From NCBI RefSeq assembly GCF_044324785.1, contig NZ_CP172127.1: 64,000 nucleotides of DNA; one strand, written 5' to 3'. The first letter of the stretch is position 1, and each line of letters opens with the position of its first letter. A program made the translations under genes and the position numbers. This DNA comes from Escherichia coli (GTDB taxonomy: Bacteria; Pseudomonadota; Gammaproteobacteria; Enterobacterales; Enterobacteriaceae). Below, in pieces: positions 2,796-3,712 of the stretch. The notes beneath the pieces are model-generated. The model did no database searches. It worked only from the letters and a program-made list of their open reading frames with translations, and was not told the origin of the DNA.

Positions 2796-3712
2796 GAATC
2801 CCTCTGCAACAAAAACAAACAGTCTCCGGCGTGTGCTTTTTGGCTGCGCCAGAACGATACCTTTACGCCGGAGTGGTAGTTTGTTGAGGTTTAGGGAGTT
2901 TCAGGCTGTACGCAGTACAGACTGCCTGCGAAGCAGGAGTGTCTCCGGGGCTTCTTGCCCCCCTCGGTATCGATCTTTTTCTCCTTTACTCTTAGCTGAC
3001 AGCGGCCCCAAAGGGCATGTCAGACGGCGGAAATATGGCGCAGGCCAGAACTGGCGCGGCTTGTGGCGGTGAGTTGTGCGGCGTCACTTTGCTTTTTCGC
3101 TGGCGCGACCAAAGTGACGCCTCGTCTGGTGCAGGGGGTAAACGTTACGTTTCTGGTGCAGGGTGACGGTCACGCGGCAGCAAAGCCTGACGGCAATGCA
3201 GGCCGCAGCCCGTCAATGTAAGGCGCTGGTTGTCAGCAGAAGATAAAACCCGGCAAAGCCAGAGTGTCAGCCCGTAAAGCCGGGTATCTGGTGCAGTGAT
3301 GGTGTATATGTACGTCAGTCTCAGATGCAGGTATTTTTGCATCCCCGGCGTTTTCAGAGATCAACGCCGGTAAAGGATGCCATGCTGGCGAAGCCAGGCG
3401 CTTCTTTCAGACGTGAAGCGACAAAGGGACTGCCCGGAGGCAGTTTGTTGCAGGCGGGAGACTGCGCCATTATTTCTGGTGCAGGAAGGAAAAACTGTTT
3501 CCGGGTTTAAAAGATTGTTTGCTTACCTGGTGACGGAAAAACTGTCGCGCTTCGCTTGTCTTCTCCCGGCGCGGCTGCCAGCAAAAGCAGGCAGCGCGCC
3601 GGGAGAGTCTGGTTTTACTGTAACAATGCGCCTGACGGTTCAGCCATCAGGATCGGCGTTTATGCATGAGTCTTCCGGTACGGTTGCCCCGATCATCGAT
3701 GTATCTGGACGG

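Follow-up and report, generated by a model that had tools for sequence, protein, structure and literature searches.

The stretch of Escherichia coli DNA analysed here (64 kb of contig NZ_CP172127.1; hereafter the window) begins inside the P4-like integrase of a tRNA-Asn island, and the part of it under study, 3034-3606, holds a repeated decamer and two hairpins that had been picked out in a first-pass annotation. Read along the minus strand, the locus consists of an isrK/c4-a1b1 leader with a C4 RNA (4598-4413), a 153-aa open reading frame (ORF), a gene for a Ner-like helix-turn-helix (HTH) protein, the region 3034-3606, the small RNA EFASI and a gene for an integrase-domain protein of the Pfam family PF12835, which is relaxase-like by the comparisons made below. 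The functional strand of 3034-3606 is the minus strand, called the sense strand in what follows. The module is present in many islands linked to tRNAs in E. coli, Salmonella, Citrobacter, Klebsiella, Brenneria and others; some of these islands carry type VI secretion system (T6SS)/Rhs cargo. The order of the module is conserved as C4/isrK RNA, 153-aa gene, Ner-like gene, the second hairpin (H2) with a short tail, the decamer block containing the first hairpin (H1), EFASI and the PF12835 gene. The region is a recurrent deletion breakpoint in E. coli, and we judge the chances to be about even that a mobilisable island, now decayed, had its cis-acting mobilisation region here, with an origin of transfer (oriT)-like relaxosome site combined with a structured leader. 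Feature coordinates are given in Table 1.

Four copies of the decamer TCTGGTGCAG had been reported in one orientation, and exact matching returned all of them, at 3125, 3152, 3287 and 3475 on the plus strand. A fifth exact copy was found at 1688 on the minus strand, and the first-pass annotation had overlooked the opposite-strand copies at 1225, 1466, 1495, 1688, 2131 and 2844 (all minus). With at most one mismatch allowed, the window contained 15 matches compared with 3.24 ± 1.81 in 100 shuffles of the same 64 kb, none of which reached 15 (0/100), and 10 of the 15 were concentrated in 1225-3484. To the right of 3125 every local decamer lies on the plus strand and to the left of 2853 every one lies on the minus strand. 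The array has two arms of opposite orientation: the four copies of TCTGGTGCAG make up one, and the other, downstream, lies past the relaxase-like gene and before the convergent P4-like integrase. A downstream array was present only where the PF12835 gene abuts a convergent P4-like integrase and was absent from the small E. coli islands L095 and L098. The 26-bp context of copy 3 recurs in inverted orientation at 1466, copy 3 itself being Escherichia-specific. A resemblance of GCTGGTG to the Chi consensus was dropped as an explanation, since the decamers form a local array and not a genome-wide skew.

Conservation was followed in a comparative set of 79 loci encoding relatives of the PF12835 protein, with one genome per species, and in about 20 further loci from E. 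coli genomes and plasmids. The decamer, with the consensus [A/T/G]CTGG[T/C]GCAG across loci, was largely limited to loci whose PF12835 protein is at least ~62% identical to that of E. coli (the decamer clade: Escherichia, Citrobacter, Klebsiella, Salmonella, Serratia, Cedecea, Brenneria, Lonsdalea, Samsonia, Tatumella, Kluyvera, Phytobacter and others). It was enriched ~50-fold in 42 of these related loci, against a background of 0.11 per kb, and its orientation there was strictly ordered with respect to the PF12835-gene start codon: from -800 to -250 there were 109 antisense and 0 sense copies, from -250 to +870 (leader and gene) 117 sense and 0 antisense, and from +870 to +1800 88 sense and 2 antisense, giving 205 sense to 2 antisense for gene and downstream zones combined. 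The flip in polarity falls between EFASI and a conserved block of ~230 nt directly upstream of it. This block is alignable across genera and runs on the sense strand as the box TTTGCTGCCGCGTGACCG, a decamer, a 17-nt spacer, a decamer, H1, one or two more decamers, a purine-rich box and EFASI. Conservation of the motif copies in homologous islands, the check that had been proposed with the first-pass annotation, was thus observed.

The genes accompanying the decamer proved less constant than the PF12835 protein. A Ner-like gene was found upstream on the same strand in 28/33 decamer-clade loci, and the 153-aa gene was confined to that clade (24/33 loci, against 0/34 in the other clade). Eight other-clade loci carry a Ner-like gene ~74% identical and in the same upstream position without any decamer; the block is kept without the 153-aa gene in nine decamer-clade loci and in L095 and L098; and remnant islands that lack both genes retain all decamer copies. 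Judged by these co-occurrences, the sole constant partner of the decamer is the PF12835 protein clade. The earlier suggestion of protein-binding sites and RNA structure held in so far as these are cis elements, a putative repeated recognition motif and a covarying structure, but the proposed association with Ner did not: co-occurrence with the Ner-like gene fails, and the elements belong with the minus-strand unit of EFASI and the PF12835 gene.

Several differences between related loci end at decamers. A purine-rich cassette of 120-132 nt (L035 compared with L034, +893 to +1022) differs between paralogues, being present or absent among close relatives, and ends within decamer copies, as does the extra 27-bp decamer-plus-spacer unit of an O145 strain (L004, 5353-5389), and homology between paralogues stops at decamers at -417 and +898. 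Two further copies were seen in particular settings. In L028, L031 and L037-L039, a bidirectional terminator at about +1090 to +1130 relative to the start of the gene separates the PF12835 gene from the convergent P4-like integrase and has the decamer GCTGGCGCAG in its loop. Within the PF12835 gene, an internal TCTGGCGCAG spans the codons Y-L-A-Q at +764 (L002, 4222-4231), where codon identity is 0.91-1.0 (mean of the gene, 0.70), which hints weakly at constraint on the nucleotide sequence.

Both inverted repeats of the first-pass annotation were recovered, with arms at 3080-3091/3110-3121 (H1) and 3562-3573/3595-3606 (H2), each of 12 nt and 100% complementary, the latter with an inner stem extension. 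Folding z-scores on the minus strand were -4.6 for H1 and -4.6 for H2. In a 22-sequence alignment spanning genera, 13 of the 20 pairs of H2 were preserved by changes on both sides. When read on the sense strand, G·T outnumbered A·C combinations by 24 to 5 in H2 and by 9 to 1 in H1 (33 to 6 together), and because of this excess we take the structures to be read on the window minus strand, as RNA or single-stranded DNA (ssDNA). The tail that follows H2 was found in 16/35 decamer-clade and 3/36 other-clade loci; H2 always had this tail behind it and was additionally present in three STAXI-type loci (STAXI is an RNA family considered below). H2 was rejected as an intrinsic (Rho-independent) terminator, as it has no U tract and the minus strand runs on as AAGACAAGCGAAGCGCGACAG; a terminator scan near H2 gave only a weak plus-strand site at 3598-3613.

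The first-pass statement that the stretch holds no credible ORF agrees with the cross-genus alignment, which contains 1-2 nt indels and base-pair covariation and no codon conservation. The 52-aa hypothetical protein annotated by PGAP at 3063-3221 on the plus strand (WP_000301065.1) overlaps H1, two decamers and the conserved box; it was rejected as a gene on the grounds that its start and length vary among strains, and from the sequence comparison this ORF is probably not a gene.

EFASI stands in Rfam for 'Enterobacteriaceae, Frequently Around STAXI and Integrases'. In the window this RNA lies 57 nt from the PF12835-gene start codon, and it was a sense small RNA in all loci scanned. According to Rfam it usually follows STAXI at a distance of a few hundred bp and precedes integrase genes, so that 3034-3606 occupies the usual STAXI slot, on the minus strand. 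STAXI itself (RF01728) gave no match at E <= 10 in 2950-3750, and neither the window nor the E. coli loci had one that reached the gathering score. In related plasmid loci the model did find STAXI at this position. At permissive thresholds Rfam returned nothing credible within 2980-3720. In other loci STAXI or the radC motif (RF01754) sits between H2 and EFASI, which suggests that the structured modules between the two are interchangeable. Examples of a radC RNA motif or a weak STAXI in this slot were seen at 1830-1967 of L091 and at 4296-4436 of L044.

Copy 3 of the decamer marks a deletion hot spot. Matches to 3207-3366 were present in 317 E. coli genomes, intact in 239 of them and truncated in 78 (about a quarter), and among 60 of the 317 matches all 15 truncated records (15/15) ended at query position 80 or 81, equivalent to window 3286/3287, between TA and TCTGGTGCAG, with the retained side always ending in ...GCCGGGTA. 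At least four junction partners were identified, namely yeeJ at 23325, the 5' end of yeeJ at 24918, rhs at 7676-7681 and the start of the Ner-like gene; in the three that could be resolved the junctions showed microhomology of 2-7 nt, ending in TA. The partners are without likeness to the decamer, and recombination with secondary sites was rejected as the source of the deletions. The PF12835 gene was intact in nearly all deleted lineages examined. The junctions look as they should if a DNA end of fixed position had been repaired through microhomology. The hot spot, which is the one indirect hint of nicking and transfer at this locus, is consistent with a site-specific nick where the sense-strand CTGCACCAGA ends on its 3' side, the geometry with which tyrosine recombinases cleave. 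A metagenome scan from the left anchor returned 21 intact junctions, one ACTGGTGCAG variant and two of rhs type, with no new partner. Two more deletion ends in the region (3539 and 3652) lie away from decamers. Comparison of window 3540-4876 with L008 revealed an independent deletion of the C4, 153-aa and Ner-like module with a junction just before the rhs start codon, and from 3653 onward comparison with L003 revealed another, joining the region to the interior of yeeJ.

The PF12835 gene of the window is decayed, and the relaxase-like reading frame is internally rearranged or frameshifted here (2334-2519 and 2214-2795, minus strand). The P4-like integrase (window 1-850) is a pseudogene in strain N3, which is 99.99% identical over 9.7 kb, and the island is probably immobile in the source strain. 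The protein is intact, for example, as WP_000041053.1, and strain STEC308 carries an intact module (NZ_CP091020.1, 2,073,000-2,076,000). An intact homologue matched the full PF12835 profile (E = 3.9e-59), and PF12834 also at full length. R147, K179, H241-S-L-R244 and Y287 are invariant among intact homologues, and with Arg147, Lys179, His241-x-x-Arg244 and Tyr287 in place these residues can be read as the catalytic set of a tyrosine recombinase; matches to PF00589 and XerC were weak. No close solved structure was found for the intact homologue, and a search of 5.8 billion proteins returned the names 'integrase domain-containing / DNA-binding protein' alone. The gene always stands beside a P4-like integrase at a tRNA. 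As PF12835 (INT_DTR_like) serves as a signature of MpsA-like atypical relaxases (PMC10484663), the protein would be of MpsA/MOB_M type by Pfam signature and synteny.

Table 1. Features in and around the region 3034-3606, in window coordinates.
Feature	Position	Strand	Remarks
Decamer copy 1	3125-3134	+	27 bp from copy 2; 3 nt from H1
Decamer copy 2	3152-3161	+	deeply conserved across genera, always beside box TTTGCTGCCGCGTGACCG
Decamer copy 3	3287-3296	+	within the 26-bp context TA-TCTGGTGCAG-TGATGGTGTATAT at 3285-3310; deletion hot spot between 3286 and 3287
Decamer copy 4	3475-3484	+	sense strand CTGCACCAGA; TCTGG[T/C]GCAG conserved in Escherichia spp.
Two degenerate decamers	TATGGCGCAG 3034-3043; ACTGGCGCGG 3050-3059	+	slots of intact copies a and a' in other genera
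Decamer TCTGGCGCAG	2844-2853	-	sense orientation; overlaps EFASI 3' end; first copy past the polarity switch
Downstream decamer arm	1225-2140 (copies 1225, 1466, 1495, 1688, 2131)	-	opposite to the four copies at 3125-3484
Conserved box TTTGCTGCCGCGTGACCG	3167-3184	-	33/35 decamer-clade loci, 0/36 other-clade loci
Hairpin H1 (GGCGTCACTTTG...CAAAGTGACGCC)	3080-3121	-	outer stem nearly invariant; 5/12 pairs with compensatory changes
Hairpin H2 (long hairpin of the first-pass annotation)	3562-3606	-	~20 bp; base CTCCC/GGGAG kept, interior variable
Invariant 21-nt tail AAGACAAGCGAAGCGCG(A/G)CAG = AAGACAAGCGAAGCGCGGCAG	3542-3562	-	directly 3' of H2; single copy in window
Small terminator-like hairpin ACCCGGC/GCCGGGT, then UUUUAUCUU on the sense strand	3248-3285	-	z = -1.9, weak; base abuts hot spot
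EFASI RNA (RF02957)	2851-2978	-	Rfam match 100.8 bits; contiguous with block; same position in every related locus
Decayed PF12834+PF12835 gene	2214-2795	-	annotated frameshifted; intact 294-aa versions in other strains
Ner/SfsB-like HTH_35 gene	3901-3713	-	upstream of the region on the same strand

A close parallel is found in Salmonella genomic island 1 (SGI1), in which MpsA is a tyrosine-recombinase-like relaxase and mpsA is preceded by a GC-rich oriT of 125 bp with many inverted repeats (PMC6414798). Between oriT and mpsA of that island is encoded the essential sgm-sRNA, which is released by cleavage of a sense RNA of 650-700 nt; this RNA extends across oriT and carries a GC-rich hairpin close to its beginning (PMC9299015). 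Both integrase-bearing islands have a cis region with inverted repeats, then a small RNA, then a tyrosine-recombinase-like gene, with a GC-rich hairpin near the distal end, the order here being H2, the decamer/H1 block, EFASI and the gene. They differ in that the protein here includes the SAM-like domain at its N terminus whereas SGI1 has a separate MpsB, in that the RNA here is EFASI, likened to sgm-sRNA by gene order and not by sequence, and in that no polar two-sided decamer array has been described for SGI1. A recent preprint reports MOB_M proteins to be the commonest chromosomal relaxases, often annotated as integrases and in 96% of cases beside an integrase, frequent in islands of E. coli and S. 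enterica, with the intergenic regions upstream of their genes defining new oriT families, oriT_rM (Ares-Arroyo et al., bioRxiv 2026). The locus described here resembles that account in its chromosomal, integrase-adjacent, tyrosine-recombinase-related protein annotated as an integrase and in the upstream intergenic region that is the candidate oriT, but the decamer, hairpins and break hot spot are not described in the text of it accessible to us.

The STAXI and radC elements (RF01728, RF01754) are found at the equivalent position, a few hundred bp ahead of EFASI and the PF12835 gene, and are likewise tandemly repeated structured units, RNA or ssDNA, sometimes near C4 RNAs. The repeat here is a 10-nt linear motif beside hairpins, whereas that of STAXI is a UUCG pseudoknot, and STAXI-type loci have neither the box nor the decamer. 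The pIGRK oriT (MobK) also lies upstream of a gene for a tyrosine-recombinase-like relaxase and has three pairs of inverted repeats, direct repeats and a short motif occurring four times. It differs in its AGCGA motif, replicon type and size, and nicking, which was shown in vitro for MobK, is only proposed for the present locus.

Taken with the conserved, covarying inverted repeats upstream of the relaxase-like gene, in the position expected of an oriT, the conservation and polarity of the decamer, its co-variation with the protein clade and the break at copy 3 lead us to infer binding, nicking and transfer as follows. The PF12835 protein would recognise the decamer, the sense-strand CTGCACCAGA serving as binding arm, and would cleave at its 3' edge as tyrosine recombinases do. 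The adjacent hairpins would fold in the sense strand, either in a long leader transcript that matures into EFASI or in unwound ssDNA, and may help relaxosome assembly. On this model the oriT-like site would be made up of the decamers and H1, possibly with H2 and its tail, embedded in a leader ending in EFASI, and transfer of the island would probably start in this region. We suggest only tentatively, as a possibility that we regard as open to considerable doubt, that the boundary between TA and TCTGGTGCAG on the plus strand (the 3' edge of CTGCACCAGA) is the nic site of a large clade of MOB_M relaxases. We know of no MOB_M enzyme for which the nic site has yet been mapped.

Several points weigh against a mobilisation region. 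The relaxase function is an extrapolation that relies on a Pfam signature and a preprint, and in the window the relaxase-like gene is a pseudogene, as is the P4-like integrase, so that nothing active in cis is left here. An oriT normally requires one nick site, and a simple oriT model does not explain opposed arrays on both sides of the gene. The hot spot lies at the Escherichia-specific copy 3 and not at the deeply conserved copies 1 and 2; moreover, the base of the small terminator-like hairpin coincides with it, and this alone could favour template switching. A sigma-70 promoter scan of 2700-4900 found none, and the sense-strand bias of the hairpins fits a role in RNA equally well.

That last point is the core of an alternative which we consider rather unlikely, in which the stretch acts at the RNA level as a long structured leader or small RNA (sRNA) precursor of the EFASI/relaxase-like transcript. 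The CUGCACCAGA copies of the leader would pair with UCUGGYGCAG at three places, namely the 3' end of EFASI, a site just past the start codon (+8) and the 3' untranslated region (UTR), and such pairing would control translation, stability or processing. Hairpin covariation with a G·U bias on the sense strand, the contiguity of the block with EFASI, the STAXI or radC motifs that fill the same slot elsewhere and the perfect complementarity of upstream and downstream decamer copies all suit such a leader; the downstream copies precede a bidirectional terminator and hence lie in the 3' UTR, and SGI1 offers the precedent of a long primary RNA through the equivalent region. A leader of this kind nevertheless leaves unexplained why DNA breaks cluster at the exact edge of a decamer and why indels are bounded by decamers, and neither the failure to find a promoter nor the weak constraint on the decamer within the coding region favours it. 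The decamer-bounded indels are better accommodated if the decamers are accessory or core parts of conventional tyrosine-recombinase sites for multimer resolution, inversion or cassette exchange, which we think unlikely. The full catalytic set of the protein, the direct-repeat arrays upstream, the inversion of the two arms with a 26-bp extended inverted repeat, the gain or loss of the 120-132-nt cassette and the 27-bp unit between decamers, and the end of paralogue homology at decamers (-417/+898) are all in keeping with such sites. No inverted decamer pair with the 6-8 bp spacer of a canonical core site was seen, however, the copies within an arm being all direct and the nearest inverted pair noted, in L002-type loci, lying ~30 bp apart; no inverted or excised 1.8-kb segment was found among the E. 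coli loci compared, and the deletion partners are unlike the decamer. On this reading the decamer arrays would be comparable to the crs/Rsd of Salmonella virulence plasmids or to the sfx sites of shufflons.

Operators through which the Ner-like HTH protein or the 153-aa protein controls the island, as the first-pass annotation had suggested, would account for the proximity of the region to these regulators and for the frequency of both genes in the decamer clade. We hold this to be very improbable in view of the other-clade loci with a closely similar Ner-like gene and no decamer, the blocks kept without the 153-aa gene and the remnant islands that keep every copy with neither gene. Chance repeats in a decaying, non-functional intergenic remnant might be expected where both flanking recombinase genes are pseudogenes, as in the source strain, but the enrichment and polarity statistics, the conservation across genera and the compensatory base changes contradict this, and we give it next to no weight.

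EFASI, STAXI, C4, the MOB_M relaxases and their upstream oriT regions are already known. In the literature accessible to us there is no description of the polar decamer array and its link to a protein clade, of H1, H2 and the tail, of the positional equivalence with SGI1 or of the deletion hot spot. A mobilisation region at this locus would provide a testable recognition and cleavage motif and two covarying hairpins for a recently recognised class of relaxases, and the orphan EFASI RNA would gain a suggested function as the counterpart of the transfer-essential sgm-sRNA of SGI1. The natural hot spot has repeatedly removed parts of yeeJ or rhs in about a quarter of the E. coli genomes that have the region. 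If the proposed nic site is true, the opposed decamer arrays flanking the gene would represent a new polar relaxosome/recombination architecture, and the same activity would lie behind the recurrent deletions truncating yeeJ and rhs in natural E. coli.

Other elements were observed in the surrounding DNA. The C4 antisense RNA (62 bits; 4413-4598, minus strand), with its a1/b1 target and an isrK-like leader, precedes the 153-aa and Ner-like genes with synteny across genera, and the unit from C4 to the leader may be one long operon feeding the mobilisation leader. A second set of isrK, c4-a1b1 and C4 antisense RNA at 38244-38441 (plus strand) suggests another island or a prophage-type immunity module. 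At 960-1450 the window is AT-rich and contains direct repeats of ~75 bp, each with an inverted repeat (TGTGATTTGCCCGCAAATCACA; CGTGATTAACATGTTAATCACG) followed by AAAACCTATCAATA..GATATTTTCACGGAA.TACCA.TTAATAC; these repeats are iteron- or operator-like in appearance, and related sequence was present in Brenneria-type loci.

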